DNA of 64,000 nt from Candidatus Nomurabacteria bacterium (GTDB taxonomy: Bacteria; Patescibacteriota; Minisyncoccia; Phycocordibacterales; UBA9973): the NCBI GenBank assembly GCA_029288725.1, contig JARIGS010000004.1, positions 15,132-79,131 on the forward strand. Reading direction: 5' to 3'. The translations under genes were made by a program, and so were the position numbers. The notes under the pieces were generated by a model. It searched no databases. It saw only the letters and a program-made list of their open reading frames with translations, and had not been told where the DNA came from. This document shows, piece by piece, positions 7,136 to 60,966 of the stretch (its first letter is position 1; the number at the start of each line of letters is the position of its first letter).

Positions 7136-7157
7136 GGGGGAGTGCTATACTTTCAGT

Positions 7158-8201: not shown

Positions 8202-8229
8202 TCTTGCTCACTATTGCTATACTATAGGT

Positions 8230-8784: not shown

Positions 8785-8788
8785 TTGT

Positions 8789-9208: not shown

Positions 9209-9220
9209 TGCAAGAAATGA

Positions 9221-9272: not shown

Positions 9273-9273
9273 C

Positions 9274-9693
9274 TTACTGAGAAACAGTAGTACTTGTTGT
9301 GGTAGTAGCAGAAGCCTTCTTTGCGGCCTTAGCAGCCTTTGCTGCTGCCTGTACTGCCTTGCGGTCAGTAGCAATTTTCTTAGCGTCAGCCTTAACAGTT
9401 GCCGCGTCAGTCTTTATCTTCGCCTTGTCAGCAGCAATAGCGGTCTTTGCTGTGCTGATGCCAGCAGTATCCTTAGCCTTCTTTGCTGTTGCAAGAGCCT
9501 TGGTGTCAGTTGCAAGCTGGATCTTGTCAGCTTTCACCGTAGCCTGATCGGTGACGTAGGCCTGGCGATCAGCTGCAAGCGTAGCACTTGCTGATGTTGA
9601 TACAGCTGGAGTGGTAGTCTGTGCTGATGCTACTGAGACGAATAGTCCGAGTGCAAGAGGGGCAATTGTTGCGGTAAGCAATGCTTTTTTCAT
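9274..9693 (-). CDS. Secreted low-complexity Ala/Lys/Thr-rich repeat protein with repeated 'KADxxKIATD' helical motifs.
   Basis: Signal peptide 'MKKALLTATIAPLALGLFVSVASA'. Start refined to ATG 9693 inside the longer track ORF. Last gene of the sigma/anti-sigma operon. Confidence 0.55.
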   Translation of the reverse strand: MKKALLTATIAPLALGLFVSVASAQTTTPAVSTSASATLAADRQAYVTDQATVKADKIQLATDTKALATAKKAKDTAGISTAKTAIAADKAKIKTDAATVKADAKKIATDRKAVQAAAKAAKAAKKASATTTTSTTVSQ

Positions 9694-9775
9694 ATGATAT
9701 AAAACGAGTAAGCAGCGATAAATACTAATATGGTGCCGGCTTACCCCCTTAATACGCGGAAAGGACAGGTTTCTT

Positions 9776-14581: not shown

Positions 14582-15151
14582 ATGAATACAAAATCAATTA
14601 TCGGCATCATTGTAGTTATCATTATTATTGTGCTTATCGCGGTATGGCTGCATAAGGCACCTGCATCTCCTGCTCAACCTGCTACTCCGGCGGTGACGCA
14701 GACTGATGGTCAGGCCACCCCCATCAATCAGGCTGCTCCTGCCTCAGCACCAGCTCCGGCAAATGGATCCGCCTCCGCACAAGGCTCTGGCGAGACAAGG
14801 AAAATTATCAGTACTAAGACAGTAAACAATATGAAAATTGAAGTAACAAAAGAAGGATCAGGACCAGCTATTACCAACGGACAGACTGCCGTAATGCTCT
14901 ATACCGGCAAGCTCACTGACGGTTCAGTCTTTGATTCAACCGATAAGCACGGTGGTCAGCCATTCTCATTCACCCTTGGTGCTGGTCAGGTTATCAAAGG
15001 ATGGGATGAAGGTATTCTTGGCATGAAGGTAGGTGAGGAACGCACCCTTACCATTCCACCAGAACTAGGCTATGGCGCAAATGGTTTTCCTCCAGTAATC
15101 CCACAGAATGCGACCCTCGTATTTGATGTAACATTAGTAGGAATTAAATAA
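14582..15151 (+). CDS. Membrane-anchored FKBP-type peptidyl-prolyl cis-trans isomerase.
   Basis: N-terminal TM '[18 protein letters not shown]'. FKBP core '[16 protein letters not shown]...[36 protein letters not shown]'. Confidence 0.85.
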
Positions 15152-15960: not shown

Positions 15961-16088
15961 TGTAGTAGCAAAGAAAAAAGCTTCCTGAAGCAGGCTTCGC
16001 AGGGCTGGCCCGAGACCGAGCAATTTTTCAGCAGAAAAATATGCGTACTGCGGAAGGAATGCTTTTTTCGGAGCCATTTTCCTTGCTA

Positions 16089-26802: not shown

Positions 26803-27045
26803 AGCAGCGATGAAGAGGCTATCACCTCGGAGCTCTGGGAAGAAAGCCCGCCTACGCATAATGCTACGGCGCGGGAACTAGACCCCAGCGGGCATGCCCG
26901 TTATAGCAGTAATGAAGAATCCGCCTTTGCAAATGCTACGGCGAGATGAGGAACTAAGGTGGTACCGCGACATGAAAATCGCCCTTAGATTATGATGAGT
27001 ATTTCATCGTGATCTCAGGGCGATTTTTTGTTACAACAGGCAATA
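26803..27045 (+). promoter_or_regulatory. T-box riboswitch leader (tRNA-Ile sensing) upstream of ileS.
   Basis: T-box consensus 'AACTAAGGTGGTACCGCGA' at 26952-26969. An intrinsic terminator 'AAAATCGCCCT...TCAGGGCGATTTTTT' (26976-27029) overlaps it, giving the antiterminator/terminator alternative. Candidate specifier 'GCTATCAC' (ATC, Ile codon) at 26821-26823. Start of ileS follows at 27064. Confidence 0.7.
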
Positions 27046-27063
27046 AAATTAATTTACAACTAT

Positions 27064-30000
27064 ATGGAAGAAGACACAAACCCAGCCGTCGCTAAAGCTA
27101 TGGCGAGCAAAGAAAAATCACAACGTGCACAGACCGAGGAGCGGATCCTCGCATTTTGGCAGCAGGAACATATTTTTGAAAAGACCTTGGAAAAGGATGC
27201 CCCAAAGGGGGAGTATATTTTTTATGAAGGACCACCGACTGCCAATGCCAAGCCGGCATTGCACCACCTGGAGTCTCGCGCATTCAAGGACGTTATTCCT
27301 CGATACAAGACCATGCAGGGGTATCGTGTGCCGCGTCGTGCCGGATGGGATACGCACGGTTTGCCAGTAGAATTGCAGATTGAAAAGAAATTGGGTCTTA
27401 CTTCCAAGAAAGAGATCGAGGCGTATGGTGTCGCACAGTTCAATAAGGAATGTAAGGATAGTGTTTTCACCTACATCAAGGACTGGGAAGACTTTACCGA
27501 CCGCATCGGTTACTGGGTTGATAAGAAAAGCGCGTACTATACGTTTGATACGAATTACATTGAATCAGTCTGGCATATCTTGTCGACCGTAAACAACAAG
27601 GGCCTTGTCTACAAAGACTTCAAGGTCCTGCCGTGGTGCCCACGTTGCGGTACAGCGCTCTCAAGTCATGAATTGGCACAGCCAGGCGCATATATGGACG
27701 TGAAGGATTTGTCAGTGACAGCAAAGTTTAAAGTTGTTGGACAGGATAATACCTACATCCTCGCTTGGACTACTACACCGTGGACATTGCCAGGGAATGT
27801 CGGTTTAGCTGTTGGGGCGGATATTGATTATGTTGCAGTAGAAAAAGATGGAGAAACGCTGATCCTTGCAAAGGAGCGTATGGAAGTGCTCGGCGGCGAC
27901 CTTACGGTGATAAAAGAAATGAAAGGCAAAGATCTTGTTGGCCTTTCCTATGAACCGCTTTATCCATATCTTGCGAATCTTATCGCTGGTGACGAAGCAA
28001 AGAAAATGGATGCAGCATATAAGGTCTATCCAGCAGATTTCGTTACTACCACTGATGGTACCGGTATCGTACACACAGCCGTAATGTATGGTGCTGATGA
28101 CTTTGATTTGGGAACGGCAGTTGGTTTGCCAAAGTTTCATACCGTTGATGATACAGGGCATTTCATTGCCGGTACTGATTTTCTTGGGGGGCGATTTGTG
28201 AAGGATGAGGAAGTGGCTGTCGATATCATTAAAGACCTTGCGCATCGGGGATTGCTGTTCAAGAAGGAAAAATATGAGCACTCTTATCCGCATTGCTGGC
28301 GTTGTAAGACTCCATTGCTCTACTATGCCCGTGATTCATGGTACATCGCGATGTCAAAAATGCGTGATGAGCTAGTAAAGGAAAACGAGACCATCAACTG
28401 GGAACCGGCTCACATCAAGCAGGGGCGCTTTGGCGAATGGCTGAAGGACCTTAAGGATTGGGCGATTTCTCGTGAACGATACTGGGGTACGCCATTGCCG
28501 ATTTGGCAGGCAGCCGATGGTGAGCGACTATTTGTTGATTCCGTTGCAACATTGAAGCAATACATCAAGAAGTCAGGCAATACGTACTTCATCATGCGCC
28601 ATGGCCAGACTGAGCACAACCTCAAAGGATTGTGGAATTTCGGTGACACCACTGATCCGTTGACTGATGCAGGAAGGGAGCAGGTAGTGGCAAGCGCCGC
28701 TATGTTGAAGGATAAAAAGATTGACCTGATCATCACTTCACCGTTTGCCCGTACGCTGGAAACGGCAACACTGGTAGCGGCACGAATTGGATTGACTGAG
28801 GAAAATATCATTACCGATAGTCGCATCGGTGAGTGGAATGTCGGCGCAGCATTTGATGGCAAACCAATGGATGAGTTCTTTGCTATTCGCAATGCTCAGG
28901 CTGATCGATATGGGTTCAAAACCGAAGATGGTGAATCCTATGCTGACCTTATCAAGCGGGCAGGGGATTTTCTCTACGATATTGAAAAAAAATATGAAGG
29001 CAAAACAATTCTGATTGTCTCTCATGGTGGCGTTGATCGTGCGATGGATCTGATCTCGCAGGGTCTTTCAATGAGAAATCTGTTTGAACAGAGTCGCGCG
29101 TATCAGAACTTTGCCAATGCCGAAGTGCGGCAGATTGATTTTGCTCCCATGCCGCACAATGAACAATATGAGCTTGATCTGCACCGCCCGTTTATTGATG
29201 ACGTTGTGCTGGTCAAACCGGCAACTGACATGTCAGGAGAGGCAAGGGAATTCAGACGCGTGAAGGAAGTGATGGATGTCTGGTTTGACTCAGGGTCAAT
29301 GCCATTTGCACAGGATCATTATCCCTTCGGGCTACGCCCTCAGGGTCTGACGACCCATACAACCCAAGAACTTGCGTATCCGGCGGACTTTATCTCAGAA
29401 GCGATTGATCAGACCCGTGGATGGTTCTACACCTTGCATGCTATTGGAACATTGATGGGTCGTGGCAAGGCGTATAAAAACGTTATTTGTCTTGGTCATA
29501 TCCTTGATGCCGAAGGCAAGAAAATGTCGAAGTCCATCGGTAACATCGTTGATCCGTGGCAGGAAATGGGCCGTTTCGGTGTCGATACGTTGCGTTTGTG
29601 GATGTACTCAGTTAATCAGCCGGGGGATTCAAAAAACTATGACCCAAAGACCGTGATGGAAATGGAGCGTCAGACATTTGGCCTGCTGTATAACGTCCTT
29701 TCATTTTATGAACTCTATCGTGATACAGAGTTAGAGGTTCAATCTCTCAGTGAATCAACCAACGTATTGGATCAGTGGATCATTGCTCGTCTCAATATTT
29801 TGATCATCATCTGTACTGATGGTTTAGATCATTACAAAACGATGGAACCAGTACGAGCGATTCGTGATTTCATTGGTGACCTTTCAACGTGGTATGTGCG
29901 TCGATCGCGTGAGCGATTGAAGGGAGAAGGTCGCGTTTTAATGGACGGTACGCGACACGATTCCGCAGAATCGGCTAAAGCGACTCTGTACCATATTCTT

Positions 30001-30615
30001 AAAACACTTGCTCAATTACTTGCGCCATTTGCGCCATTCGCGGCAGAGGATATATGGGGTCACTTAAAACATTCTTCTGATACAGTATCGGTCCACCTAT
30101 CATCATGGCCTACGGTTGTACCTACTTCTATAGATGGAGTAATACTATTGGAAAACATGATCACTGTCCGTAGCATCTGTACAATTGGTAACGCCCTTCG
30201 TAAGAAACTGGCAATTCCAGTTCGTCAGCCATTGCAGTCTATTACCGTGAAAGGTGAGGCATTGCCTCAAGAGTATGTGGCATTGATCATGGATGAATTG
30301 AATGTGAAGGAAGTAGTGTTTAATACCGACCTAGAAACTGAAGCCGAGCTTGATACTACTATCACACCCGCTCTCAAAGCCGAGGGTGACTATCGTGAAC
30401 TTGTGCGTGCAGTACAGGACTTGCGCAAGACAAAAGGCTTAACACCGAGTGATGAGATTACCATCACGCTTAGCCCTGCCGGAGAATCATTGCTCACACC
30501 GTTCATGGAGGATTTCAAAAAAACCGTCCTTGCAACCGAGGTGAATTTTGCAGAAAATGAGGGGGAAGCAATTACGATCGGAGATCGGACTATGGAAATA
30601 ATCCTTACGGCATAA
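27064..30615 (+). CDS. ileS: Isoleucyl-tRNA synthetase (type-2/T. thermophilus-like), unusually long at 1183 aa because of an inserted ~200-aa histidine-phosphatase (PGAM-like) domain. The HIGH motif is degenerate.
   Basis: 'FYEGPPTANAKPALHH' (HIGH position reads ALHH), CP1 editing region, 'WCPRCGT', 'RERYWGTPLPIW', 'DVWFDSGSMPF', 'KKMSKSIGN'. Start refined to ATG 27064. Confidence 0.9.
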   Translation: MEEDTNPAVAKAMASKEKSQRAQTEERILAFWQQEHIFEKTLEKDAPKGEYIFYEGPPTANAKPALHHLESRAFKDVIPRYKTMQGYRVPRRAGWDTHGLPVELQIEKKLGLTSKKEIEAYGVAQFNKECKDSVFTYIKDWEDFTDRIGYWVDKKSAYYTFDTNYIESVWHILSTVNNKGLVYKDFKVLPWCPRCGTALSSHELAQPGAYMDVKDLSVTAKFKVVGQDNTYILAWTTTPWTLPGNVGLAVGADIDYVAVEKDGETLILAKERMEVLGGDLTVIKEMKGKDLVGLSYEPLYPYLANLIAGDEAKKMDAAYKVYPADFVTTTDGTGIVHTAVMYGADDFDLGTAVGLPKFHTVDDTGHFIAGTDFLGGRFVKDEEVAVDIIKDLAHRGLLFKKEKYEHSYPHCWRCKTPLLYYARDSWYIAMSKMRDELVKENETINWEPAHIKQGRFGEWLKDLKDWAISRERYWGTPLPIWQAADGERLFVDSVATLKQYIKKSGNTYFIMRHGQTEHNLKGLWNFGDTTDPLTDAGREQVVASAAMLKDKKIDLIITSPFARTLETATLVAARIGLTEENIITDSRIGEWNVGAAFDGKPMDEFFAIRNAQADRYGFKTEDGESYADLIKRAGDFLYDIEKKYEGKTILIVSHGGVDRAMDLISQGLSMRNLFEQSRAYQNFANAEVRQIDFAPMPHNEQYELDLHRPFIDDVVLVKPATDMSGEAREFRRVKEVMDVWFDSGSMPFAQDHYPFGLRPQGLTTHTTQELAYPADFISEAIDQTRGWFYTLHAIGTLMGRGKAYKNVICLGHILDAEGKKMSKSIGNIVDPWQEMGRFGVDTLRLWMYSVNQPGDSKNYDPKTVMEMERQTFGLLYNVLSFYELYRDTELEVQSLSESTNVLDQWIIARLNILIIICTDGLDHYKTMEPVRAIRDFIGDLSTWYVRRSRERLKGEGRVLMDGTRHDSAESAKATLYHILKTLAQLLAPFAPFAAEDIWGHLKHSSDTVSVHLSSWPTVVPTSIDGVILLENMITVRSICTIGNALRKKLAIPVRQPLQSITVKGEALPQEYVALIMDELNVKEVVFNTDLETEAELDTTITPALKAEGDYRELVRAVQDLRKTKGLTPSDEITITLSPAGESLLTPFMEDFKKTVLATEVNFAENEGEAITIGDRTMEIILTA
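28561..29163 (+). other. Histidine-phosphatase superfamily (phosphoglycerate-mutase-like) domain inserted in-frame inside ileS.
   Basis: Branch-1 signature 'FIMRHGQTEHN' (RHGxT) and second catalytic-His motif 'ILIVSHGGVDRAM'. Flanked by the conserved IleS blocks 'WGTPLPIW' upstream and 'DLHRPFIDD...DVWFDSGS' downstream. Confidence 0.75.
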
Positions 30616-31377: not shown

Positions 31378-31953
31378 ATGCACCCCATCCACCATACCGA
31401 AGCGATTGTCATCCGCAGCGAACCTTCGGGTGAGGCTAACAAACGCGTGTGGTTGCTGACCGACACCTTCGGTTTGATCGTTGCGGTAGTGCAAGGAGTA
31501 CGCAAGCCGGAAGCAAAATTGAAAAGTCATGTCACTGACTATGGCGTTATTGCTGCCGATCTTATCAAAGGAAAACATACCTGGCGACTGGTAAGCGCAA
31601 CCGTACGGGATGCAGTAATAAACCATGACTATAGCCGTAATCCTTTGGTCAGAGCGTATGTTCGCACCATCGCATTCCTGGAGCGATTTTTAGTAGGGGA
31701 AGGAGCACAGCCGGAACTGTATGCGCATGTGCGTACGGTGGGGGCAATGATCGGTGGTCAGTACGATCCACGAGCAGTTGATGCATTGTCACTATGGAAA
31801 ATGCTTGCCATCCTGGGATATATTGCCATTGATGATGCTGATGAGGAATTATTCACGCTGCCCTTTGAGCAGGCGATTATGTTGGTTGACGATATGCGCA
31901 TAAAGAAATTGATACAAAGTGCGACGGATGCCATTACTTCCAGCCATCTTTGA
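31378..31953 (+). CDS. recO: RecO-like recombination mediator: short 191-aa form with the N-terminal OB fold and no C-terminal zinc finger.
   Basis: Collinear with the E. coli RecO N-terminus: 'EAIVIRSEPSGEANKRVWLLTDTFGLIVAVVQGVRKP' versus '[37 protein letters not shown]'. Confidence 0.55.
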   Translation: MHPIHHTEAIVIRSEPSGEANKRVWLLTDTFGLIVAVVQGVRKPEAKLKSHVTDYGVIAADLIKGKHTWRLVSATVRDAVINHDYSRNPLVRAYVRTIAFLERFLVGEGAQPELYAHVRTVGAMIGGQYDPRAVDALSLWKMLAILGYIAIDDADEELFTLPFEQAIMLVDDMRIKKLIQSATDAITSSHL

Positions 31954-36766: not shown

Positions 36767-36815
36767 AAATAGTTTATTATTGGTAATTTGTGGAGTATAC
36801 TTATGAAGTATATTT

Positions 36816-39800
36816 ATGCACCTCAGTTCCCAACGATTCAATCGGATTATTGCCATCCTCGCCATCCTCTCGACGGTGAGCGTTTTTGCGTATAGAGCCG
36901 CTGCGTCTTCGTTGCCGGGTGCCTTCCTCGGATCAAAAATTACGGTCGGTGACACCAACAACACCTATGCCATTGCCGACACCAACTACCTCGAAGGAGG
37001 ACACATGCAGGTGGCAACCCATGCGGCTTTGTTGGCCATCACTCGTGAGCGTCGCGAAGTCGGCATGCTTGTCACTGTCGTCGATGATGACACGGGAACA
37101 GTGGGAAATCAGACCGTAACCTATCGTCTGATCAGCAATCCAACTGCGGATGGTTCAGGAGGAACCGCAACACCAACAACCGATGCAAACTGGACAGTGA
37201 TCATTCCTTCACTTGGTGGAAACGGAGGTAAGTTCTTGACGACTGATGGTACGACCGTAAGCTGGGCAACGGTCAGTGGCGGAGGAGGCGGTGGTACCTA
37301 TACTGCTGGTACTGGTTTGACACTCACCGGCAGTGCGTTCTCCGTGAACACTTCACAGAATATTGCAACCCTCTCTAATCTCACCACTGACGGTTTTGTA
37401 AGAACTACTGGTGCGAATGGCACGCTTACTTCTGCACCACTTTCATCTGCAGAAGTTGCCAGTGCGCTTGGGTACACCCCGTACAATGCATCAACCAATT
37501 CTTCTGGGTACATTGCCGGCAATCTTACCGGTGCGATTACTTCCGTAGGCAATGCTACCTCACTTGGTTCATTTACCTCTGCAAATCTCAGCGGTGCACT
37601 CACTGATGAGACGGGAAGTGGGGCAGCAGTATTTGCCAACTCACCAACATTCGTGACGCCAACACTCGGTGCCGCAAATGCGACATCAGTCAATGGCTTG
37701 TCACTTACTGCAAATCCAACTGGTTTTGCCATTGCTGGTGGTAGTACTACTTCAAAGACTCTTACCATTTCAAATTCATTAACACTTGCTGGTACTGACG
37801 GCTCAACGCTCAACATCGGCACTGGTGGCACGCTTGGTTCTGCAGCCTTCACCAACGCTTCTGCGTATGAAGTGCCGCTAACGTTTAGCACTGGACTCAC
37901 CAGAACAGGTAATACCATTACGGTGAATGCATCACAAAATATTTCTACACTCTCAAACCTCACCTCAAACGGTTTGATTAAGACAACAGGAGGAACGGGG
38001 GCGCTTTCGATTGCGGCCGCTGATATTGATTACTCTACACCAACTGGTGTTGAGACAATTACCAATAAGGATTTTACCTCTGGTACCAACACTTTCCCAA
38101 CATTCAACCAGAATACGACCGGTAGTGCGGCAACATTAACCACAGCTCGATTGATTGCCGGCAACAGCTTCAACGGCTCAGCCAATGTGCCGTTTGCAAA
38201 CAAATTCATTGTTCAGGGTACGAGTGATGCTGGTCTGACCGGCGCCCAGTTCCTTGGTGCATTGGCAACAGGCTTATTAAAAAACACGACCACCACTGGC
38301 GTACTGTCAGTCGCTACTCCTGGTAGTGATTATGAAGTGCCGCTGACATTTTCAACAGGACTGACACGCACCGTTAACACCATCACTGTCAATACTTCAC
38401 AGAACATTTCCACACTCTCAAATCTCACCTCGAACGGTTTCGTCACCACGTCTGGTGGTACGGGCGCACTTTCTGTCACCGGATCAACGGGGTCTGGCAA
38501 TGTCGTGCTTGCAACATCTCCAACATTGGTAACACCGGTATTGGGTGCTGCTACCGCAACAAGTATCAATAAAGTTGCCTTTACCGCTCCCGCAACTGGT
38601 GCAACGTTGACTATTGCTGATGGCAAGACGCTTACTGCATCAAACTCCCTTACCTTTGCCGGTAGTGATGGATCGACATTGAATGTTGGTAGTGGAGGAA
38701 CATTGGGAACTGCGGCATATACCAGTTCATCAGCGTATGAAGTGCCGCTAACATTCAGTACTGGTCTTACTCGTACTGTTAACACCATCACTGTTAACAC
38801 TTCCCAGAACATCGCGACCCTTTCAAACCTCACTTCAAACGGTTCAGTCCAGACATCCGGAGGCAACGGTACGCTTTCCGTCGTTGCTAATACCGGTACC
38901 GGTAACAATGTCCTTGCGAATTCACCAAGTCTCACTAGTCCCTCTTTTTCAACAATTGTAAATACTGGTACACTGACACTCCCTACTTCTACCGATACGC
39001 TGGTTGGTCGTGCAACAACTGACACACTAACCAACAAAACTATAAGTGGATCAAACAATACACTGACCAATATTCCAAACAGTGCTCTTACCAACTCATC
39101 ATTAACGCTTGCTCTCGGCACGTCTGGTACTGACGTAAACTGGGGTGCATCAACGGTCTCATTGGGCGGTACTGCAACGCTCAACATTCCTGATGCCTCT
39201 GCCACCGCTCGAGGCCTTATCACTACTGGCGCGCAGACCATTGCCGGTGCAAAGACATTTTCAAGTTCAGCGACATTCTCAGCATATACGTCAGGTTCAG
39301 TGCCTTATATTTCAACTGGTGGATTGCTAGCGCAGGACAATGCGAATTTCTTCTATGACGGAATAAACCACCGATTGGGATTGGGCACCACCTCACCGTC
39401 TGCCTTCATCCATGTTCTAGGAACAACCGAGCAGCTTCGTCTCGGATATGATGCAAGCAACTATGGATCATTTACCACTGGCAACACTGGAGGGCTTACC
39501 GTTACCACCACCGGAACGAATGCAAATGTTAACCTCAGTCCTGCTACGGGCATTGTCACCGTGAACGGTACTATCCCCGAGCAGCGCTTCGTCACCTCGG
39601 GCGACAGCAACTACGCGCGCTTCCAGCGCTCAACCGCAAGCGACCAGTTCGTCGGCAAGAACAACGTCTTGCAGTCAGGGGGAGTAGGAAAGGCAATTAC
39701 CGTAACACTTGGTGCCAATCGATATCTTCAAGCTTCTGATGCAGGGTTGCCTACTGGTAGTTCCATTACGTTAAGTTTCAGTGAATGGTATAAATGGACT

Positions 39801-42800
39801 AGTGGCAGCGTAAACGTGCTCTTCTCATACGGTCCCGCTACAAGTAATAATCAGCTTACTTTTTACCTTACTAGTACGACCGGTGTCCTCGCTACGACTG
39901 GTGGAAGTCCGCTGGGTACTGTTTCAATGTCCGGTACTCCTAATGATGGTAACTGGCACCATATTGTAGTGGTGATTAACGGCAGTTCATTGACTGTATA
40001 TACTGATAATATCTCCCACACGGCCACGCTTACTGCTTACAACATCACTTTAAGTGGTACCTTCCAAAACTATCAACCAACAACTGCCTTGGCAGGAGCA
40101 CTAGACCAGGAGCTTGTATATAATAGAGTGCTCAGCCGCACCTCCGGTGCCGGTTCCTCCGACGAAATTGCGCAACTGTACAATGGAGGATCCGGTACTG
40201 CCTCAATCCCGACGACAGGCCTCATTCGCCGCTACGACTTCGAAGAGGGCACTGGCACGACAGCAAATGACACCAACCCAAATGGCACCCAGTATCCATT
40301 GACATTAATTAACGGTCCGACGTGGACCTTGAACGGCTTCGTGCCAGTCAGTGCAAGCAGCACCGAGTCCCCATTCTTCTCAGTCAGTGACGGCCTCACC
40401 AACGCCGAGCGCGGCATCGCGACCTGGGGCGACTTCAACGGCCGCAACCAGCAGCAGGGTAAGTGGTTCCAGTGGTTCCAGAACGGCGTGTACCCACTGG
40501 CAAGCAACAACAGCGGACAGTGGCTGTTCAATCCGAATAATAGTTCAAATACGGCACCAACAATTGCTTCCACCATCGACGTGGCCGGTAACCTTACGAT
40601 TGGCGCGACATATGCGGGAGTGAACGCCGCGCCGACCAACGGCCTGCTGGTGCAGGGCAACGTGGGTATTGGTACGACTACTGCAAACGGTACTCTTTCA
40701 CTGGGGGGCAACCAGACTGCTGCTGCCTGGGGTACTACTGGTATCAACTTCAGCACGGCAGCTGCAACCTACACTAACTCCTCAACCGCAGCAAATGGAA
40801 CAGTGGCCAATAGCGCCGTCAACTCTTTCGGTGTTCCAACTCTTGCTGCTTCCAACACGGGTGTTACTAGCACTACTGCATCAACTTTGTATATAGCAGG
40901 GGCACCGGTAGCGGGAACAAACATGACCATTACCAATCCATTGGCCCTCTATGTTGCAACAGGCAACGCCTCATTTGGTGGTAATGTTGGCATTGGTACA
41001 ACTAGTCCGACGGCAAGACTTCAGCTTGGTGCTGGTACTGCTACTGCGGGTACTGCGCCACTGAAGTTCGCCAGTGGAACTAATCTTGCTACACCAGAAG
41101 CCGGTGCGATGGAATTTGACGGTACGCAGCTATATTTCTCACCGTCAACTACTCGAAACATTGTCGCACAGGTTTCAGGAGGCACCCCACTAACGGCAGG
41201 ATCAATTCCGTTTGCAACCGCAAGTGGTTATTTCACACAAAACAATAATAATTTCTACATTCAAAACAGCTCATCTACTCCAATGACCCTTGCTACCAAC
41301 ACCAACGTTGCGTTTAGTGTGAACACGAACGGTGACTTTACGGGTACCGATGCTGTTAATATCTATGGTCAGTATGATGCGTATCTGCCTAACAGCGCCA
41401 TCACCAATTCATTGACTGGTTTGAACACTGATGGAGCGTTTCCAGGATACGGGGTTTCTTCATCCCGCGGCACAGGACAGTCACCAGTACAGCTCCAGAC
41501 CGGTGACCTAGTTGGTGGTTTCTTTGGCTTTGGTGCCCAAGGTGCGTCGTCACCAACGTATCAAAACCTTGGTGGTATGGCTGTGACGACCATAGGAAGT
41601 TCGACCAATAACCTTGGTGGACAGTTGAATTTCTATACTAAGGCTGACGGCGGATCATTAACTCAGCACTTGAGCATTGATAATGCTGGTGTGCTCTCGG
41701 TATCAAGTACCACCCCCGAGCAGCGCTTCGTCACCTCGGGCGACAGCAACTACGCGCGCTTCCAGCGCTCAACCGCAAGCGACCAGTTCGTCGGCAAGAA
41801 CAACGTATTGCAGTCAGGGGGAAGTGGTCAGGCAATAGTCTTCAACTCCGCTTCTAGTCAGTATTTTACTGCCCCTGATACTGGCCTGCCAACAGGATCA
41901 AGTATTGCCTTAACGGTATCGCAGTGGATCAAGTATAACGGGGGCGTACCGGCCAACCTTCCGTTGCTGTATTATGGAACGGGCTCAACCAGTCTGACTG
42001 CCTTTATAGTAACTAACAGTGGACAAGTCGCTGTGTATAATGGTAATACAGCACTAAGTTCTGCCTTTGGCGTGCGTATTGATGATGGTAAGTGGCACCA
42101 TGTTGTCCTTACAATAAACGGCAGTGCATTGACTGTCTACATAGACAATGTGTCATATACTGGTACGTTGCCTGCCTATACCGTAGCGACAGGAGCGTCA
42201 ATGGTAAACAATAATGTTGCGAACTCGACGTTTTATTTCTCCTATTCACTTGATCAATTATTGGTGTACAACAGAGTGCTCAGCCGCACCTCCGGTGCCG
42301 GTTCCTCCGACGAAATTAGCCAATTGTATAATTCTGGTGCGGGTACCGCTTCCATTTCTACTACCAACCTGCTTCGCCGTTACGACTTCGAGGAGGGCAC
42401 TGGCAGTACTGTAAGCGACACCAATCCGAATGGTACGCAATACCAAATGACACTGGTAAATAGCCCATCTTGGACATTGAACGGCATCGTGCCTATTGGC
42501 GCTAGTAGTACAGAGACATCATTCTTCGCTATCAAAGACGGCCTCACCAACGCCGAGCGCGGCATCGCGACCTGGGGCGACTTCAACGGCCGCAACCAGC
42601 AGCAGGGTAAGTGGTTCCAGTGGTTCCAGAACGGTTCATACCCACTGGCAAGCAACAACAGCGGACAGTGGCTGTTCAATCCAAGCAACAATACTAACGG
42701 CGTTCCGACTATTGCCTCAACTATCGACGTTGCCGGCAACATAACCGTTGGTGCGATATATGCGGGAGTGAACGCCGCGCCGACCAACGGCCTGCTGGTG

Positions 42801-44336
42801 CAGGGCAACGTGGGTATTGGCACTGCTGCTACGACCGTCGCATCCAAACTCCATATTCTTACTACTGCACTTGGAACTACGCAGGCAAACTCTTCTGGTA
42901 TTTACCTGCAAAACAATACTGCGGCAGCTGCAGGTGCGCAACAAATTTCTCCGGGTATCGTGTTTGAAGGTCAGGGATGGAAAACAAATGCAACGGCTGC
43001 ATCACAGGCAGTAGACTTCCGCGAATTCGTTGTACCGGTGCAGGGAACTGCGAATCCTACCGGCTATCTCTCATGGGGTTCTTCAGTCAACGGTGCCGGA
43101 TATACTGACGGATTGCTCGCATTAACGACTGGTGGAAACCTCGGTATCGGCACTACTGCTCCATCAGGCGCACTTTCAGTCGGAGGCAACCGTACCGCTT
43201 CCGCCTGGGGCGTGAACGGTATTAACCTACAAACTGTTGCGGCAACGTACACTGACTCATCGACTGCTGCCAACGGTACCGTTACTAATACCGCCATCAA
43301 CTCATTCGGCATCCCAACGGTGGCGGCGACAAACAGTAGTGTTACCTACACCAACTACTCCAATCTCTACATTGCCGGTGCGCCATTAGCCGGAACAAAT
43401 GTAAGCCTTACTAACCGTTTTGCATTGAACGTCGCCGGTGGCAGCTCATTCTTTGGCGGTAGTGTCGGCATCAGTACTGCGGGTACGCCATTCACCCCAA
43501 GCTTTACGCTGCAGGTTGGGGATGGCGCGGTTAGTGGCATCGTTGCTCGTTTCCAAAACAGCGCCGGTACTTGTGACATTAACCCGCTTACCAGCTCATT
43601 GGCTTGTTCTTCTGATATGAACCTGAAGAAAAATATTACTAACTTGTCCGATGGTAGCGCATGGAGCTTCAGCAACAATATTTCTGTTGCCAATGATAGT
43701 GATCTTGATAAGATCCTTGCCCTTAATCCGGTGACTTACAACTGGAATGTTGAACAGGACACCGACCAAAAGCATATCGGTTTCATTGCTCAGGATGTGC
43801 AGCAGATCTTCCCTGATTTGGTCGCAACTGATCCAAACACCCACTTGCTGTCATTGAACTACATCGGCTTCATTCCATATACCATTGAGGCAATCAAGGA
43901 AATAAACTTCAACATCACCGCCATCGACGATCTTACCAAGAGCAATACCTGGAGAGACGCATTGATTGGATGGTTTGCTGATAGCGCCAACGGCATCAAG
44001 TCATTGGTTGTTCATGACAAGGTCTGTGTCGATGACCAATGTTTGACCAAGAGTGACATTCAGCGATTGTTGCAGCTTGAAAACCAGCAGGGAGGTACGA
44101 CTACGGTATCAAACTCATCATCAAATACGACAAGTAGTACTACCACCGACAGTAGTACTGATACTACGTCACAAACCCAAAGTCCTGATGTGACTGCACC
44201 AGCACCAGATACCACTACTACCAGTACCGCTTCTCCTGCGCCAGACACGACTACTTCAACGGATACTTCTAGTTCCAGTACCACTGACACGAGCAGCACT
44301 CCGCCCCCAGCTGATACTACTAGTGCGAGCCAATAA
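36816..44336 (+). CDS. Giant (2506 aa) secreted multi-repeat protein: signal peptide, about 4 N-terminal ~140-aa repeats, two ~715-aa modules each carrying a LamG/ConA-like lectin domain, a phage tail-fibre-type intramolecular chaperone (Peptidase S74) domain, and a Ser/Thr-rich tail.
   Basis: Signal 'IIAILAILSTVSVFAYRAAAS'. Repeats 'YEVPLTFSTGLTRT.NTITVN.SQNI.TLSNLTSNG' occur three times with this motif (~nt 37866, 38332, 38740), with a fourth divergent copy at ~nt 37328 lacking the YEVPLTFS start. LamG motif 'LVYNRVLSRTSGAGSSDEI.QLYN' occurs twice. S74 chaperone motif 'LNPVTYNWNVEQDTDQKHIGFIAQDVQQIFPDLV'. Confidence 0.8.
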   Translation: MHLSSQRFNRIIAILAILSTVSVFAYRAAASSLPGAFLGSKITVGDTNNTYAIADTNYLEGGHMQVATHAALLAITRERREVGMLVTVVDDDTGTVGNQTVTYRLISNPTADGSGGTATPTTDANWTVIIPSLGGNGGKFLTTDGTTVSWATVSGGGGGGTYTAGTGLTLTGSAFSVNTSQNIATLSNLTTDGFVRTTGANGTLTSAPLSSAEVASALGYTPYNASTNSSGYIAGNLTGAITSVGNATSLGSFTSANLSGALTDETGSGAAVFANSPTFVTPTLGAANATSVNGLSLTANPTGFAIAGGSTTSKTLTISNSLTLAGTDGSTLNIGTGGTLGSAAFTNASAYEVPLTFSTGLTRTGNTITVNASQNISTLSNLTSNGLIKTTGGTGALSIAAADIDYSTPTGVETITNKDFTSGTNTFPTFNQNTTGSAATLTTARLIAGNSFNGSANVPFANKFIVQGTSDAGLTGAQFLGALATGLLKNTTTTGVLSVATPGSDYEVPLTFSTGLTRTVNTITVNTSQNISTLSNLTSNGFVTTSGGTGALSVTGSTGSGNVVLATSPTLVTPVLGAATATSINKVAFTAPATGATLTIADGKTLTASNSLTFAGSDGSTLNVGSGGTLGTAAYTSSSAYEVPLTFSTGLTRTVNTITVNTSQNIATLSNLTSNGSVQTSGGNGTLSVVANTGTGNNVLANSPSLTSPSFSTIVNTGTLTLPTSTDTLVGRATTDTLTNKTISGSNNTLTNIPNSALTNSSLTLALGTSGTDVNWGASTVSLGGTATLNIPDASATARGLITTGAQTIAGAKTFSSSATFSAYTSGSVPYISTGGLLAQDNANFFYDGINHRLGLGTTSPSAFIHVLGTTEQLRLGYDASNYGSFTTGNTGGLTVTTTGTNANVNLSPATGIVTVNGTIPEQRFVTSGDSNYARFQRSTASDQFVGKNNVLQSGGVGKAITVTLGANRYLQASDAGLPTGSSITLSFSEWYKWTSGSVNVLFSYGPATSNNQLTFYLTSTTGVLATTGGSPLGTVSMSGTPNDGNWHHIVVVINGSSLTVYTDNISHTATLTAYNITLSGTFQNYQPTTALAGALDQELVYNRVLSRTSGAGSSDEIAQLYNGGSGTASIPTTGLIRRYDFEEGTGTTANDTNPNGTQYPLTLINGPTWTLNGFVPVSASSTESPFFSVSDGLTNAERGIATWGDFNGRNQQQGKWFQWFQNGVYPLASNNSGQWLFNPNNSSNTAPTIASTIDVAGNLTIGATYAGVNAAPTNGLLVQGNVGIGTTTANGTLSLGGNQTAAAWGTTGINFSTAAATYTNSSTAANGTVANSAVNSFGVPTLAASNTGVTSTTASTLYIAGAPVAGTNMTITNPLALYVATGNASFGGNVGIGTTSPTARLQLGAGTATAGTAPLKFASGTNLATPEAGAMEFDGTQLYFSPSTTRNIVAQVSGGTPLTAGSIPFATASGYFTQNNNNFYIQNSSSTPMTLATNTNVAFSVNTNGDFTGTDAVNIYGQYDAYLPNSAITNSLTGLNTDGAFPGYGVSSSRGTGQSPVQLQTGDLVGGFFGFGAQGASSPTYQNLGGMAVTTIGSSTNNLGGQLNFYTKADGGSLTQHLSIDNAGVLSVSSTTPEQRFVTSGDSNYARFQRSTASDQFVGKNNVLQSGGSGQAIVFNSASSQYFTAPDTGLPTGSSIALTVSQWIKYNGGVPANLPLLYYGTGSTSLTAFIVTNSGQVAVYNGNTALSSAFGVRIDDGKWHHVVLTINGSALTVYIDNVSYTGTLPAYTVATGASMVNNNVANSTFYFSYSLDQLLVYNRVLSRTSGAGSSDEISQLYNSGAGTASISTTNLLRRYDFEEGTGSTVSDTNPNGTQYQMTLVNSPSWTLNGIVPIGASSTETSFFAIKDGLTNAERGIATWGDFNGRNQQQGKWFQWFQNGSYPLASNNSGQWLFNPSNNTNGVPTIASTIDVAGNITVGAIYAGVNAAPTNGLLVQGNVGIGTAATTVASKLHILTTALGTTQANSSGIYLQNNTAAAAGAQQISPGIVFEGQGWKTNATAASQAVDFREFVVPVQGTANPTGYLSWGSSVNGAGYTDGLLALTTGGNLGIGTTAPSGALSVGGNRTASAWGVNGINLQTVAATYTDSSTAANGTVTNTAINSFGIPTVAATNSSVTYTNYSNLYIAGAPLAGTNVSLTNRFALNVAGGSSFFGGSVGISTAGTPFTPSFTLQVGDGAVSGIVARFQNSAGTCDINPLTSSLACSSDMNLKKNITNLSDGSAWSFSNNISVANDSDLDKILALNPVTYNWNVEQDTDQKHIGFIAQDVQQIFPDLVATDPNTHLLSLNYIGFIPYTIEAIKEINFNITAIDDLTKSNTWRDALIGWFADSANGIKSLVVHDKVCVDDQCLTKSDIQRLLQLENQQGGTTTVSNSSSNTTSSTTTDSSTDTTSQTQSPDVTAPAPDTTTTSTASPAPDTTTSTDTSSSSTTDTSSTPPPADTTSASQ
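39575..43860 (+). repeat. Tandem duplication of a ~2.15-kb coding module inside the giant gene (unit 1 ~39575-41712, unit 2 ~41713-43860), with several 42-108-nt islands that are 100% identical.
   Basis: Identical stretches: 39575-39667 and 41714-41806; 40125-40169 and 42273-42317; 40389-40485 and 42537-42633; 40492-40533 and 42640-42681; 40611-40672 and 42759-42820. Sequence between the islands is diverged. Confidence 0.85.
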
Positions 44337-44361
44337 CCATAACGTATGATAGGATACCACC

Positions 44362-45423
44362 ATGCATGACACACGAACCATCCGCATAAGCACTGACACG
44401 ATGATCCGCGGTATTTTGTTGATCGTGGCAGCGGTTATCCTCTTTAAAATCAAGGATATTTTGCTTCTCGTGCTTGTTTCCATAGTGATCGCTTCCTTTG
44501 TTGAGGCCGGGGTACGCATGTTCAAATCATGGGGCATTGACCGTACCTTGTCAGTACCGATTATCTTTACAGCGGTCATCGGTATGGTGACGGTACTGTT
44601 TTACACCTTTGTGCCGATTGTCATTCGGGAACTTTCTGGTGTCCTTACCTCATTACTGACGTATCTGCCAAGCAGTACGCCGGTAAGTAGCCAGTCCGTT
44701 GAAAGTGTCACGGCATTCATCGCAAATATTGCTCACCATACTTCGCTGACAGAATTATTGGGAAGTATCAAGACGAGTGCGTCTTCATTATCACAGGGGG
44801 CGACGACGTTTATCGGTTCAACATTCGGCAATTTGCTCGATGTGGTCTTGGTAGTGGTGATGTCATTTTATCTTTCTATCCAGGAGCGGGGGATTGATAA
44901 CTTCCTACGCATCCTTACACCGCTGAAGCATGAACACTATGTCGTGAACTTGTGGAATCGCACCCAGCACAAGATCGGGGTCTGGTTCAAAGGACAGCTC
45001 TTGCTCGGTCTGATCATGGGAGCAATTACTATCGTTGCATTGGCACTGTTGGGTGTGCAGTACTCATTTCTTATCGGCTGCGTGACTGGTATCGCCGAGC
45101 TTATTCCGTTTGGCATTATCTTTGCGGCCGTACCGGCCATTCTCTTTGCCATTATTGGCGGAGGATACATACTCGGTATCAAGGTATTGATCTTCTATAT
45201 TGTCGCTCATCAGGTTGAGGGCTATGTCCTTAGTCCGGTGGTGGCACATCGCACTGTTGGTATTCCGCCACTTGTCGTGCTCCTGTCATTCTTGATTGGC
45301 ATTACTGTTGCCGGATTCTGGGGCGCTATTATTGCCATTCCGGTGGCAGTATTTATCCTTGAATATCTCAGCGATGTTGAAAAACAAAAGCTCGTACCGA
45401 TTACGATAAACAAGCCTCAATAA
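44362..45423 (+). CDS. AI-2E family (UPF0118/PerM-like) transporter.
   Basis: Eight-TM pattern with the characteristic central and C-terminal blocks 'LIPFGIIFAAVPAILFAI' and 'SPVVAHRTVGIPPLVVLLS'. Confidence 0.75.
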   Translation: MHDTRTIRISTDTMIRGILLIVAAVILFKIKDILLLVLVSIVIASFVEAGVRMFKSWGIDRTLSVPIIFTAVIGMVTVLFYTFVPIVIRELSGVLTSLLTYLPSSTPVSSQSVESVTAFIANIAHHTSLTELLGSIKTSASSLSQGATTFIGSTFGNLLDVVLVVVMSFYLSIQERGIDNFLRILTPLKHEHYVVNLWNRTQHKIGVWFKGQLLLGLIMGAITIVALALLGVQYSFLIGCVTGIAELIPFGIIFAAVPAILFAIIGGGYILGIKVLIFYIVAHQVEGYVLSPVVAHRTVGIPPLVVLLSFLIGITVAGFWGAIIAIPVAVFILEYLSDVEKQKLVPITINKPQ

Positions 45424-45428
45424 CTTTT

Positions 45429-46892: not shown

Positions 46893-47168
46893 CCTCGCCC
46901 GCTCCGAGGAATCTTTCCCTTCTGGAGACACGCATATTTTTCTGCTGAAAAATTGCTGTGCTCGCGCCAGTCGCGCTGCGCAAGTCTCCATCTGTGAAAA
47001 TTCCTCTTCACATGCTCGATCACGTAATGTGGATACAAAGGCAGAACGTTTCCGGTGCCACCTAATGCGAGGCCGAAGATGATCTAATCTTTTCCCGCCT
47101 GCTTGCCAGGGAAAAATTAGATCATCAGAGCAATATCCCACATTTATGAATTTATATATACTACTACT
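46893..47168 (+). ncRNA. Candidate structured noncoding region between metG and tatD (nested helices plus an ~18-bp hairpin).
   Basis: Nested inverted repeats: CCTCG...CGAGG (46893-46909), GAGGAAT...ATTCCTC, GGAGAC...GTCTCC, TTTTTC-TGCT-GAAAAA and GCGC-cagtc-GCGC (46906-47018). Long hairpin GATGATCTAATCTTTTCCC / GGGAAAAATTAGATCATC (47078-47127). No ORF and no T-run terminator. Confidence 0.3.
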
Positions 47169-50604: not shown

Positions 50605-51735
50605 TTACTCAGCGGCGCTGGTCATGACTACTTCCTTCATGCGCTTGCGTACATCTTTAAGGATCTGGTCACGGATCTTGGTATTTTCACGCATGAAGAT
50701 ACGGCTCGCGTCGTAACCACGGCCAAGTTTGATTTCACCTTCTTCGCTCGCCGTAGATTCATCGGAGGAGGGTTCGTTTGCGTCTTCACCATCTTTGCCC
50801 GCCTTCGTCTTCTTCGAAGACTTCGGAGCGGGGACACTAGGGAGGTATGAGTATGAAGTGCCACTTTTCTTGATCAGACCGAGGCTTTCACCAAGGGCGA
50901 GCAGTTCGCCTTCGAGAGAAATACCTTCACCATAAATGATATCGAATTCGGTCTGCTTGAATGGGGCAGCGACCTTGTTCTTCACGACTTTCACGCGGGT
51001 ACGAGAGCCTACCACTTCGTCACCCTTCTTGATCTGGGCAATGCGGCGAATATCAAGACGGACTGAGGTGTAGAACTTCAATGCCTTGCCACCTGGAGTG
51101 GTCTCTGGGTTACCAAACATGATACCGATCTGCATGCGGATCTGGTTAATGAAGATCACAATAGTATTGGAACGAGCAACGATAGCAGTGAGCTTACGAA
51201 GGGCCTGAGACATCAGACGAGCCTGCTTACCGACATGCTGTGCGCCCATGTCACCCTCGATTTCATCCTTTGGGGTGAGGGCAGCCACTGAGTCAACGAC
51301 GATAACGTCGATCTTGCCACTGCGTACGAGGCTTTCAGTGATTTCAAGACCCTGTTCACCCGTGTCAGGCTGGGAAATGAGCAGTTCCTTGATGTTCACG
51401 CCGATGTTTGCCGCATAGTCAGGATCCATAGCGTGTTCTGCATCAATGTAGGCACAGACACCGCCGAGTTTTTGAGCTTCTGCCACGACGTGCAATGCAA
51501 GGGTAGTCTTACCGGATGATTCTGGACCAAATATTTCAATGATACGACCGCGGGGAAGACCGCCAATACCAAGGGCAATATCAAGACCGATAGAGCCAGT
51601 CGGGATAGCGGAAACTGCTACTTTCGGGGTTTCGCCGAGTTTCATGATTGCTCCTTCGCCGAACTTGGTCTGAAGGGATTTGATTGTATCTTCAATCGAA
51701 GCGTTATGTTCTTTGGGTGCGGATTTTTTTGCCAT
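50605..51735 (-). CDS. recA: Recombinase RecA with a low-complexity Ser/Lys/Glu-rich insertion near the C-terminus.
   Basis: Walker A 'GPESSGKTT', 'IVVDSVAAL', L2 loop '[15 protein letters not shown]'. The insertion is '[36 protein letters not shown]'. Confidence 0.95.
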
Positions 51736-58944: not shown

Positions 58945-60966
58945 ATGGAACAGCCTGTCATCAACGCCAAAAAAACCATTTTCTGGATTGTGGCATTGCT
59001 CATTATTGTTGCCCCACTCATTATCTCGAAGGTAATAGTCTATGAATATATCAATCCAAAACTCTTTACCATCGAATTGGGATTGGGGTTGGTTATTGCA
59101 CTGACTCTGCTTCTTGCTCCACTGGCTATATGGAAAAAAGGACTGCGCCAACCGGCAGGATGGGGCATAGGATTGTTTCTAGTAACACTGGTAGGTGCTA
59201 CTTGTGCAAGTATGGATCCTGTTACGTCATGGTTTGGCAATATTGATCGTGGTACTGGTACATTTTTTCTCCTGCTACTAGGAATTGCCGCATGGGCAAT
59301 GGGGTCATTAATGAAAAGGGAAGAGGCACGCAAGTATTTGTTGTTGCCACTTGGTATTTCAGGAGCGATTCTTGCTCTTTCTATTTATGCTGAAGAATTA
59401 GGCTGGGGAGTATTGAAGACAGCTGATACTGGTGGATTTATTGGCAACACATCGATGACGGGTACCTACTTGCTGATGACACTGTTTGTCACGGCGTACT
59501 TGCTCTGGTCCGCATCATCACGCCGTGCCAAGTGGCTCTATGGCATTGCGATAGCAGTGATGCTAATCAACCCTGTCTTTGTGCACTTCTCATTTTTTAC
59601 TCATGACGCGGGACTGTTTTCAGTTGTCGGTGAAGCACGCGGTGCGGCATTTTCAGTATTGTTCGGTCTGGTCATTGCCGGTGGGGTATGGGGCATGACT
59701 TCCGCTGGACAGGTGAAAAAGTGGTGCGGTGCTGTCATCCTCGGTCTTGCGGTACTGTCTGCAGCAATTGGCATTGGCGCTCTGGTGACACCAAACACCA
59801 CTATTCACAACTGGTTCGTCAGTAAGGAAACCGACGTGCGCTTTATTTATTGGAATGCCGCCGTGAAGGGGTTTCAGCATTACCCAGTACTCGGAACAGG
59901 ACCAGAAACCTATGGCTATACGTACCAGCGATACTTTGATCCGATTGTGATGGTGCCCGGCCAATCCGGTGAGATCTGGTCAAACAAGCCACACAATATG
60001 TACCTTCAGGTTTTGACTGAGACAGGAGTAGTGGGTACCATTGGCTATCTTGCGCTCTTTGCCGGACTGATCGTATCGGTCATTGCCGCATACAGAAACG
60101 ATGGCAAAAATGATGAGCAGAGGAAATGGGTAATTATGCTCTCAGGATTATTGGCAGCCTATCTTCTTAATAACCTTATTGTCTTTGATACGGTCACGAG
60201 TTACTTCGCCTTCTTTATTATTGCCGCTGCCATTATTGCGCGGAGTCCGTACAGTTTCGAACAGGTTACAGAGTCAGCCCAGGAAAAGGGATTGCGCATC
60301 ATTGCTGGTCTGGGCGTTATGGTGCTGGTAGTGTGGATTGTCATTCCTCAAATAGTGAAAACTCATCGCGCTTACGAGGAATTCATCATCCCGCTTGATC
60401 GTCGAGCCGCATATTATCAGACCGTGGAAGACACGGCTTCATACGGTGCCGCACTATTTGTCTCACAGCGCGCGGACTTTTCATACGAGCAGATCTTCTC
60501 ACCGAATCTCGCCAGCATCTTGCAGCAAAATCAGGGCAATAAAACAATTGCTGCCAACGCCATTCAGTCTTTGATCGATACCTTGCAGCGTAGCTTTACC
60601 AAGTACCCTCCAAATGTTCAGGGTGAACTGGCAATGGGTAAGTTGGCGAGCATCAAGATGGTGATACTGAATGCGCCTGATTCAGCATCATTGGCAACAA
60701 TGAAGTCGGGAGCGGAAATGGCAGTCAGCCTTGCACCGAACAACCCTAACGGCTATATGCTTCTCGGTCAGGAATATGTCTATGAACAGCAATACAATAA
60801 TGCGTATGCTCAGTTTGAAAAAGCCCGCACATTGGAGCCATTATGGTTAGCGCCTCATATGGCATTGATCAACCTTGCCAACCTCTTGCATGATGACAAA
60901 AAGGCAGCGTTCTACGTTGTGCAAGCGCAGCAGGAAGTGCCTGGTTTTACTGCTACTAAGAAATAA
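58945..60966 (+). CDS. O-antigen ligase (Wzy_C/WaaL)-family polytopic membrane protein with a C-terminal soluble TPR-like domain.
   Basis: 'WNAAVKGFQHYPVLGTGPETYGY...PHNMYLQVLTETGVVG' Wzy_C-like block. At least 10 TM helices. Confidence 0.7.
   Translation: MEQPVINAKKTIFWIVALLIIVAPLIISKVIVYEYINPKLFTIELGLGLVIALTLLLAPLAIWKKGLRQPAGWGIGLFLVTLVGATCASMDPVTSWFGNIDRGTGTFFLLLLGIAAWAMGSLMKREEARKYLLLPLGISGAILALSIYAEELGWGVLKTADTGGFIGNTSMTGTYLLMTLFVTAYLLWSASSRRAKWLYGIAIAVMLINPVFVHFSFFTHDAGLFSVVGEARGAAFSVLFGLVIAGGVWGMTSAGQVKKWCGAVILGLAVLSAAIGIGALVTPNTTIHNWFVSKETDVRFIYWNAAVKGFQHYPVLGTGPETYGYTYQRYFDPIVMVPGQSGEIWSNKPHNMYLQVLTETGVVGTIGYLALFAGLIVSVIAAYRNDGKNDEQRKWVIMLSGLLAAYLLNNLIVFDTVTSYFAFFIIAAAIIARSPYSFEQVTESAQEKGLRIIAGLGVMVLVVWIVIPQIVKTHRAYEEFIIPLDRRAAYYQTVEDTASYGAALFVSQRADFSYEQIFSPNLASILQQNQGNKTIAANAIQSLIDTLQRSFTKYPPNVQGELAMGKLASIKMVILNAPDSASLATMKSGAEMAVSLAPNNPNGYMLLGQEYVYEQQYNNAYAQFEKARTLEPLWLAPHMALINLANLLHDDKKAAFYVVQAQQEVPGFTATKK

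Follow-up and report, generated by a model that had tools for sequence, protein, structure and literature searches.

Recombination is associated with higher GC content across bacteria (Lassalle et al. 2015, PMC4450053), and long-lasting concerted evolution occurs in prokaryotes (PMC6053082). Among vertebrate paralogues (histones, Hsp70, HINTW) conversion has been linked to GC, according to references 94-96 of PMC3924838. Here we describe a 64,000-nucleotide stretch of a Candidatus Nomurabacteria contig (GenBank assembly GCA_029288725.1, contig JARIGS010000004.1 of 91,758 nt, positions 15,132 to 79,131; hereafter the window), which carries a giant gene for a tail-fibre-like surface protein with two tandem LamG modules. 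The two modules are diverged over most of their length, yet share five short, GC-rich islands in which they are identical to the nucleotide. We consider that these islands are probably intragenic gene conversion tracts, confined to protein-conserved segments and with an outcome that favours G and C.

The giant protein consists, in order, of a hydrophobic N-terminal segment, fibre repeats (four copies), two LamG modules, a Peptidase_S74 domain and a Ser/Thr/Pro-rich tail; the reading of its N-terminus as a signal or anchor was made by eye from the sequence. The original prediction, made from the letters of the DNA, described the modules as a 2.15-kb tandem repeat with five perfectly identical segments of 42-108 nt. 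The period holds, with only a core of ~1.15 kb and a distal segment of ~0.35 kb alignable in each, and five exact matches were indeed found when the island pairs were defined by exact-match extension, their true size range being 44-98 nt. The two pairs which it gave as examples (39575-39667 with 41714-41806, and 40389-40485 with 42537-42633) were right to within 1 nt. The gene, the module cores and the islands are placed as follows (GC3 is the GC content of third codon positions):

36816-44336, plus strand: giant surface-fibre gene, 2,506 aa (open reading frame, translation, Pfam Laminin_G_3 in two stretches and Peptidase_S74)
39547-40702, plus strand: core of module A, alignable to module B (pairwise nucleotide and codon alignments)
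41686-42850, plus strand: core of module B (nucleotide and codon alignments); best Pfam LamG stretch at aa 1680-1824, equal to 41853-42287
39575-39667, plus strand: island 1, copy A, 93 nt, GC3 0.93, PEQRFVTSGDSNYARFQRSTASDQFVGKNN
41714-41806, plus strand: island 1, copy B, exact match to 39575-39667
39669-39683 and 41808-41822, plus strand: continuation of island 1 in the two copies, 15 nt exact, after one mismatch
40125-40169, plus strand: island 2, copy A, 45 nt, GC3 0.67, RVLSRTSGAGSSDEI, a C-terminal LamG strand motif
42273-42317, plus strand: island 2, copy B, exact match to 40125-40169
40389-40486, plus strand: island 3, copy A, 98 nt, GC3 0.97, DGLTNAERGIATWGDFNGRNQQQGKWFQWFQN
42537-42634, plus strand: island 3, copy B, exact match to 40389-40486
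40491-40534, plus strand: island 4, copy A, 44 nt, GC3 0.71
42639-42682, plus strand: island 4, copy B, exact match to 40491-40534
40610-40672, plus strand: island 5, copy A, 63 nt, GC3 0.80, YAGVNAAPTNGLLVQGNVGI, a motif widespread among tail-fibre-like proteins
42758-42820, plus strand: island 5, copy B, exact match to 40610-40672
40224-40343, plus strand: partly decayed islands, copy A (RRYDFEEGTG, TWTLNGFV), 3-4 consecutive codons identical per run, GC3 0.75-1.0

The flanks around the islands share 40-75% identity between modules, and islands 3 and 4 are split by a 4-nt patch encoding a Val/Ser difference. The exactness of the identity rests on a metagenome assembly. We read the partly decayed runs at 40224-40343 as older conversion tracts. 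The offsets from copy A to copy B are 2139 and 2148 nt, both multiples of three, so that an unequal crossover within any of the islands would keep the reading frame while removing or adding one module or yielding a chimeric LamG module.

Synonymous sites separate the islands sharply from the remainder of the modules. In a test set of degenerate amino acids (those with several codons) at which the two copies agree, all 107 of 107 codons inside the islands are identical, whereas outside them the figure is 83 of 215, against 73.7 expected at full synonymous saturation under the gene's own codon usage; the divergence of the flanks is therefore as real as it first appeared. The island match has a probability of ~1e-44 at 0.39 per codon, and of ~1e-22 when both copies are drawn independently from the islands' own codon usage, and the longest run of identical codons (32) exceeds the maximum of 29 reached in 100,000 permutations. 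Synonymous codons are matched position by position, with Ala as GCG, GCA or GCC, Gly as GGC, GGT or GGA, and Ser as TCG, AGC, TCA or TCC, and this mixed but matched usage indicates identity by descent and not convergent codon choice. Saturation outside the islands indicates that the duplication of the modules is old, and the combination of homogenised synonymous sites in the islands with saturated sites elsewhere excludes protein constraint alone. The islands are recent identities by descent between ancient tandem paralogous modules, and recent patchy gene conversion, which the original prediction offered as one of three explanations, is supported by the complete synonymous identity within and the saturation without. 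The segments that do not take part include the following:

39684-40120, plus strand: variable LamG body of module A, between islands 1 and 2, never homogenised with module B
41823-42268, plus strand: variable LamG body of module B, counterpart of 39684-40120
40695-41050, plus strand: distal homologous segment of module A, amino acids conserved, paired with 43167-43540 in module B

The LamG bodies of A and B share ~40% amino-acid identity with several indels, and the synonymous sites of the distal segment are saturated (23 identical codons of 70, 23.1 expected). The islands themselves fall on those protein motifs that vary least within the family.

Repeats within the same gene and modules from related proteins serve as natural controls. 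Three N-terminal fibre repeats (37857-38870; YEVPLTFSTGLTRT…NISTLSNLTSNG) share 81-88% amino-acid identity but only 41-45% identical codons, at a GC3 of 0.40-0.50, and contain exact matches of 20 nt and 17 nt; strong protein conservation in this gene thus does not, on its own, give nucleotide identity or GC-rich codons. Eight homologous modules were available with their DNA, from the loci L001, L002, L084, L085, L212 (two modules), L213 and L215. They keep the island motifs at 57-82% amino-acid identity, and their GC3 in the island columns is 0.23-0.54, which exceeds their own background only mildly if at all, e.g. in L002 and L084 (0.52-0.54 vs. 0.35-0.36). At silent sites these distant homologues are saturated. 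The two-module layout recurs in L212 (positions 5001-9938 of a Logan SRR11658488 contig), a fibre protein of 1,645 aa which lies next to phage-like DUF6712 and CHAP genes and then bacterial genes, and is probably a prophage tail fibre. Its modules carry no identity islands: 85 of 195 codons are identical, the codons are A/T-ending, and in the island columns the amino-acid identity is 74%. These two modules are mutual closest relatives in the C-terminal part, and modules A and B are so in every partition. Whether island or non-island columns are compared, the order of the other relatives hardly changes (L215 and L002 lead, L085 comes last), which means that the islands show no separate ancestry. 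An island of another kind lies in a Saccharibacteria chromosome (L010, OZ246398.1), where positions 3084-3130 and 3798-3844 form a 47-nt exact match between tandem LamG domains of an 855-aa protein; it uses A/T-ending codons within a repeat that is 76% identical, and is thus conversion-like without GC enrichment.

The base composition of the islands is as distinct as their identity. Pooled GC3 is 0.86, rising to 0.93-0.97 in the two longest, compared with 0.48 for the whole giant gene and 0.47 for 39 other open reading frames (ORFs) of the window. Given the encoded amino acids, 48 of the 107 island codons would be expected to end in G or C and 91 do (z = 8.5), which bears out the G/C-ending usage described in the original prediction; the preference for A/T-ending codons that it attributed to the genome is right in direction but weak in strength, at a GC3 of 0.47. 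The sliding-window analysis that it proposed was carried out over the 40 ORFs (16,158 windows), and a GC3 of at least 0.85 over 30 codons was reached only at the islands of the two modules. Island codons resemble those of a high-GC genome, with Leu encoded only by CTG or CTC and Arg mostly by CGC. Along the modules, codon identity correlates with GC3 (rho 0.53 in copy A, 0.37 in copy B), and when fully identical windows are removed rho is 0.45 (p = 0.006) in A and 0.24 (p = 0.16) in B; the short, partly decayed runs YDF, EGTG and LNGV are likewise GC3-rich. Proxies for highly expressed genes (S6, SSB, EF-P, NusG, NDK, RecA) have a GC3 of 0.43-0.57; translation therefore exerts only weak selection for G/C-ending codons here, and codon preference does not explain the island composition.

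Conversion is very likely the source of the island identity, and GC-biased resolution of mismatches may be the source of the GC-richness, a reading to which we give about an even chance. The events would consist of non-reciprocal homologous recombination between two ancient tandem modules within one gene. Protein constraint would preserve in the island segments the similarity that RecA-dependent strand exchange requires, the LamG bodies as well as other stretches would drift apart and escape conversion, and the diverged neighbouring DNA would block tract extension, such that conversion could persist only in short islands. Over many cycles of mutation and conversion, heteroduplex mismatches would be resolved towards G/C, and a third position reduced to two letters would raise the chance of identity and hence of further conversion; acting together, bias and feedback would bring the islands to a GC3 of 0.86-0.97 against a genomic value of 0.47. 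Unbiased conversion could not hold a GC3 of 0.9, as a converting pair gains substitutions at the ordinary rate and would drift to 0.47, which is what happened to the saturated flanks; this leaves G/C-favouring resolution, selection for G/C or very recent imports. GC-favouring conversion is the simplest account of the composition, which the original prediction had left unexplained. The window encodes both RecA (50605-51735) and a RecO-like protein (RecO_N, 31378-31953, Pfam), so homologous recombination is plausible.

Near its C-terminal end the giant protein carries one further domain:

43611-43823, plus strand: Peptidase_S74 intramolecular-chaperone domain, aa 2266-2336 (PF13884, E = 1.7e-15)

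In phage fibres Peptidase_S74 is the cleaved C-terminus; here ~170 residues follow it (43824-44336), with a Ser/Thr/Pro-rich end (57% S/T/P over the final 105 aa). Module B also contains a ~315-nt insertion relative to A (42851-43166), between island 5 and the distal homologous segment. A structure prediction of module A from an eight-sequence alignment gave a mean pLDDT (predicted local distance difference test score) of 55, with island regions below 50, too low for fold placement. The giant protein forms a singleton cluster.

The gene stands in an ordinary bacterial chromosome. The window encodes PheS/PheT, ArgRS, IleRS, a class II synthetase, MetRS, NusG, thymidylate synthase and S6, together with SSB, EF-P, RecA, FtsK and two Wzy_C proteins, and contains no phage, integrase, transposase or reverse-transcriptase genes in its 64 kb. 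Its RecA shares 90% identity with proteins that bear the label Candidatus Paceibacterota or Patescibacteria. The neighbours of the giant gene are an M16 peptidase, aminoacyl-tRNA synthetases and an AI-2E transporter, the last of which shares with it a single segment:

36767-45428, no strand assigned: accessory slot, 8.66 kb, giant gene and AI-2E transporter

Ten related Paceibacterota contigs (L216-L225), which belong to the RecA cluster at >=90% and show 64-80% nucleotide identity, are syntenic and have the M16 peptidase directly beside MetRS, with the whole 36767-45428 segment absent. A nearer relative has an AI-2E gene and a 672-aa gene in the slot. No orthologue of the giant gene was found among the RecA-cluster relatives, and its nearest homologues are at most 72% identical. 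Absence in these relatives and different content in the nearer one indicate that the giant gene occupies a variable (hypervariable) accessory slot, the inserted segment of which is flanked by no direct repeats of 8 nt or longer.

Outside the giant gene, the window contains only one other exact repeat of at least 20 nt, a 29-nt direct repeat of 69% GC (TCCGCCTCCGCACAAGGCTCTGGCGAGAC) at 14120-14148 and 14768-14796. Its copies stand in frame within neighbouring but unrelated genes, PheT (12719-14551) and an FKBP isomerase (14582-15151), and encode SASAQGSGE, in a loop of the former and in the N-terminal linker of the latter; the flanks share only AAATGG and AAGGAA. A 28-nt intergenic sequence with a short palindrome (AGCAATTTTTCAGCAGAAAAATATGCGT) is identical at 16019-16046 (plus strand) and 46930-46957 (minus strand), upstream of nusG and between metG and tatD, respectively, in opposite orientation; it may be a common regulatory site or a small element. 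In the isoleucyl-tRNA synthetase-like protein (27028-30615; 1,195 aa) a histidine-phosphatase domain (His_Phos_1, aa 521-675) interrupts the class I synthetase core. A tandem pair of O-antigen-ligase-like (Wzy_C) genes, ~670 aa each (58945-60966 and 60975-62978) are kept in relatives and have no exact match of 16 nt or longer in common.

Several other readings of the islands were rejected. The minus strand carries long ORFs across them, as the original prediction pointed out:

40232-40756, minus strand: antisense ORF, 174 aa, not a gene
42380-42847, minus strand: antisense ORF, 155 aa, not a gene

These ORFs exist, but have no particular relation to the islands. The antisense frame that holds both is open throughout the gene (51 stops, vs. 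119 and 187 in the other frames). Away from the islands it stays open for even longer, over 324 and 243 aa, and the longest of the listed antisense ORFs are found upstream of the modules in island-free sequence. We therefore rejected antisense genes; the open frame is a composition effect of a protein rich in Thr, Ser, Gly, Ala and Asn. An RNA element was rejected as there was no Rfam match at E-values up to 1, and six island folds, compared with dinucleotide shuffles, gave z-scores of -1.58 to +0.64. A Chi-like or other common DNA motif was similarly not found, with no k-mer of 7 nt or longer common to the islands. A diversity-generating retroelement was rejected, as the Pfam scan of the window's 40 main ORFs revealed no RVT family, and the 175 mismatches in ungapped blocks show no adenine bias by copy A base (A 47, C 48, G 43, T 37).

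Import of short high-GC tracts from a foreign homologue was the second explanation in the original prediction. In this reading the tracts, e.g. from the phage tail-fibre gene of a GC-rich host, would have entered one or both modules and then spread to the other. It suits the island codon usage, which is like that of a high-GC genome (GC3 0.86-0.97), the variable accessory slot, the homologues on phage-like contigs and the second GC-rich exact tract common to two unrelated genes. A donor, however, was sought and not found. Degenerate-peptide scans (KWFQWFQN, DQFVGKNN, QWLFNPNN and others) of 185,579 species genomes, JGI metagenomes and IMG/VR returned nothing above 60% identity, the best relatives being 50-60% identical. 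An exhaustive HMMER profile search of 1.84 billion representatives reached at best 72% over the 123-aa C-terminal part, with which another protein search gave three weak matches. Exact island strings had no match in viral contigs, and GenBank phages gave no megablast match and only weak LamG matches by tblastn. Island and non-island parts, moreover, rank the relatives alike. Import would also require at least five precise in-frame replacements of 44-98 nt in each of the two modules, from a donor whose different codon usage offers no stretch of identity for homologous recombination, and the identity of A with B would still require conversion; we regard it as unlikely. Equally doubtful, in our estimation, is that the islands are conserved recombination linkers, kept identical and GC-rich as crossover points at which receptor-binding cassettes are shuffled, gained or lost in frame, perhaps together with further copies in other parts of the genome or in phages. 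Recombination at conserved motifs occurs in T-even phage tail-fibre and adhesin genes, and here too the islands flank a variable LamG body, their offsets are multiples of three, and the hypervariable slot encodes a receptor binder that resembles a tail fibre. But the 64-kb window and the 225 fetched loci hold no third copy or silent cassette of the islands, and neither do the viral contigs hold island DNA; the window contains no paralogue of the giant protein. The variable segments are saturated, with no sign of recent exchange, and selection for evolvability is unnecessary to explain the pattern.

Selection at the nucleotide level was the last of the three earlier explanations; as purifying selection without conversion, it would have DNA or RNA elements, or a strict codon choice, frozen in both copies since the duplication. 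The location of the islands at the most conserved protein motifs and the mild GC3 excess of L002 and L084 in the same columns are in its favour. As a sole cause it is nevertheless very improbable: there is no Rfam match, the folds are ordinary (z -1.58 to +0.64) and no motif is common to the islands; in homologues the codons used for these motifs are ordinary or AT-rich, the L212 paralogues differ at most synonymous sites of the island motifs, and ~107 synonymous sites would have to be near-absolutely constrained in two copies beside saturated neighbours. We give just as little credence to an assembly or polishing artefact, in which cross-mapped reads homogenised similar segments in the consensus. 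The contig is metagenome-assembled and the protein a singleton with no independent assembly, but cross-mapping needs segments that are already near-identical and cannot create GC3 enrichment, and the reading frame is intact across 7.5 kb. The islands are at most 98 nt within unique diverged DNA, where a collapse would have removed one copy and not produced two, and their boundaries are sensible, the 4-nt patch between islands 3 and 4 encoding a real Val/Ser difference. Intragenic conversion with a GC-favouring outcome also has points that weigh against it. Only a strong bias could maintain a GC3 near 0.9 in the face of the genome's composition, and causality may be reversed, with GC-rich tracts converting more easily (an argument made in PMC3924838). 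The AT-rich island of the Saccharibacteria protein shows that conversion alone does not make tracts GC-rich, and some equally conserved segments, e.g. APTIASTIDVAGN, are not islands. The genes sharing the 29-nt repeat are non-homologous, which excludes conversion between homologues there and hints at other short-patch copying. A wider proposal, which we put forward tentatively and think improbable, is that templated copying in short patches, with a preference for G and C, pastes or maintains identical tracts of 30-100 nt in neighbouring coding sequences of this lineage. The LamG islands would then be in-frame crossover points through which the cell could reshuffle its receptor-binding modules or alter their number, and the pheT/FKBP tract would be a second product.

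The interest of GC-favouring conversion at this locus lies in the contrast inside a single gene, where converted tracts have a GC3 of ~0.9 and unconverted sequence 0.47, with natural controls beside them, whilst prior bacterial evidence is mostly statistical. If confirmed, it would offer a simple test case of whether recombination pushes base composition in a reduced-genome bacterium of the candidate phyla radiation (CPR). It further suggests that the binding modules of a giant tail-fibre-like surface protein in a hypervariable slot can be deleted, duplicated and recombined in frame, a variability relevant to how attachment proteins vary in bacteria that are likely symbiotic. For annotation it carries a warning, since the GC-rich patches and antisense ORFs here are neither separate genes nor foreign inserts.

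Compared with concerted evolution in prokaryotes (PMC6053082), the locus shares tracts of identity in diverged paralogues, homogenised synonymous sites and a plausible role of homologous recombination, but what is homogenised here is five islands of 44-98 nt in one gene and not whole genes. As in GC-biased gene conversion (PMC4450053), a raised GC3 is found specifically at the sites of evident conversion, and the codon usage of highly expressed genes does not account for it; the known bacterial evidence is a genome-wide statistical association and concerns allelic recombination, whereas here there is a sharp local rise in GC3 from 0.47 to 0.9 between two repeats of one gene in a CPR bacterium, where the bias would run towards G/C. 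Phage tail fibres and tailspikes of the endosialidase type share with the giant protein the S74 domain, GNVGIGT-type fibre motifs and LamG-type binding modules, and homologues of the gene lie near phage-like genes (Clp protease and M15 peptidase in L001, DUF6712 and CHAP in L212). The giant gene differs in being set among housekeeping genes, with no phage genes in the window, and its product in having an N-terminal signal- or anchor-like segment and a Ser/Thr/Pro-rich tail after S74. Diversity-generating retroelements also combine two near-identical repeats with a ligand-binding surface protein of a CPR bacterium; here, however, the window has no reverse transcriptase, the mismatches are not adenine-specific (47 of 175 at A), and the identical parts are the conserved framework, not the variable region. 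Cassette-based antigenic variation (pilE/pilS, vlsE; PMC4534519) likewise alternates conserved with variable segments in a surface protein, but for this locus no silent donors were found in the window or the fetched loci, and the variable segments show no evidence of recent exchange. Set against these systems, the pattern is a known kind of process in an unusually clean bacterial example, and not a new genetic element.

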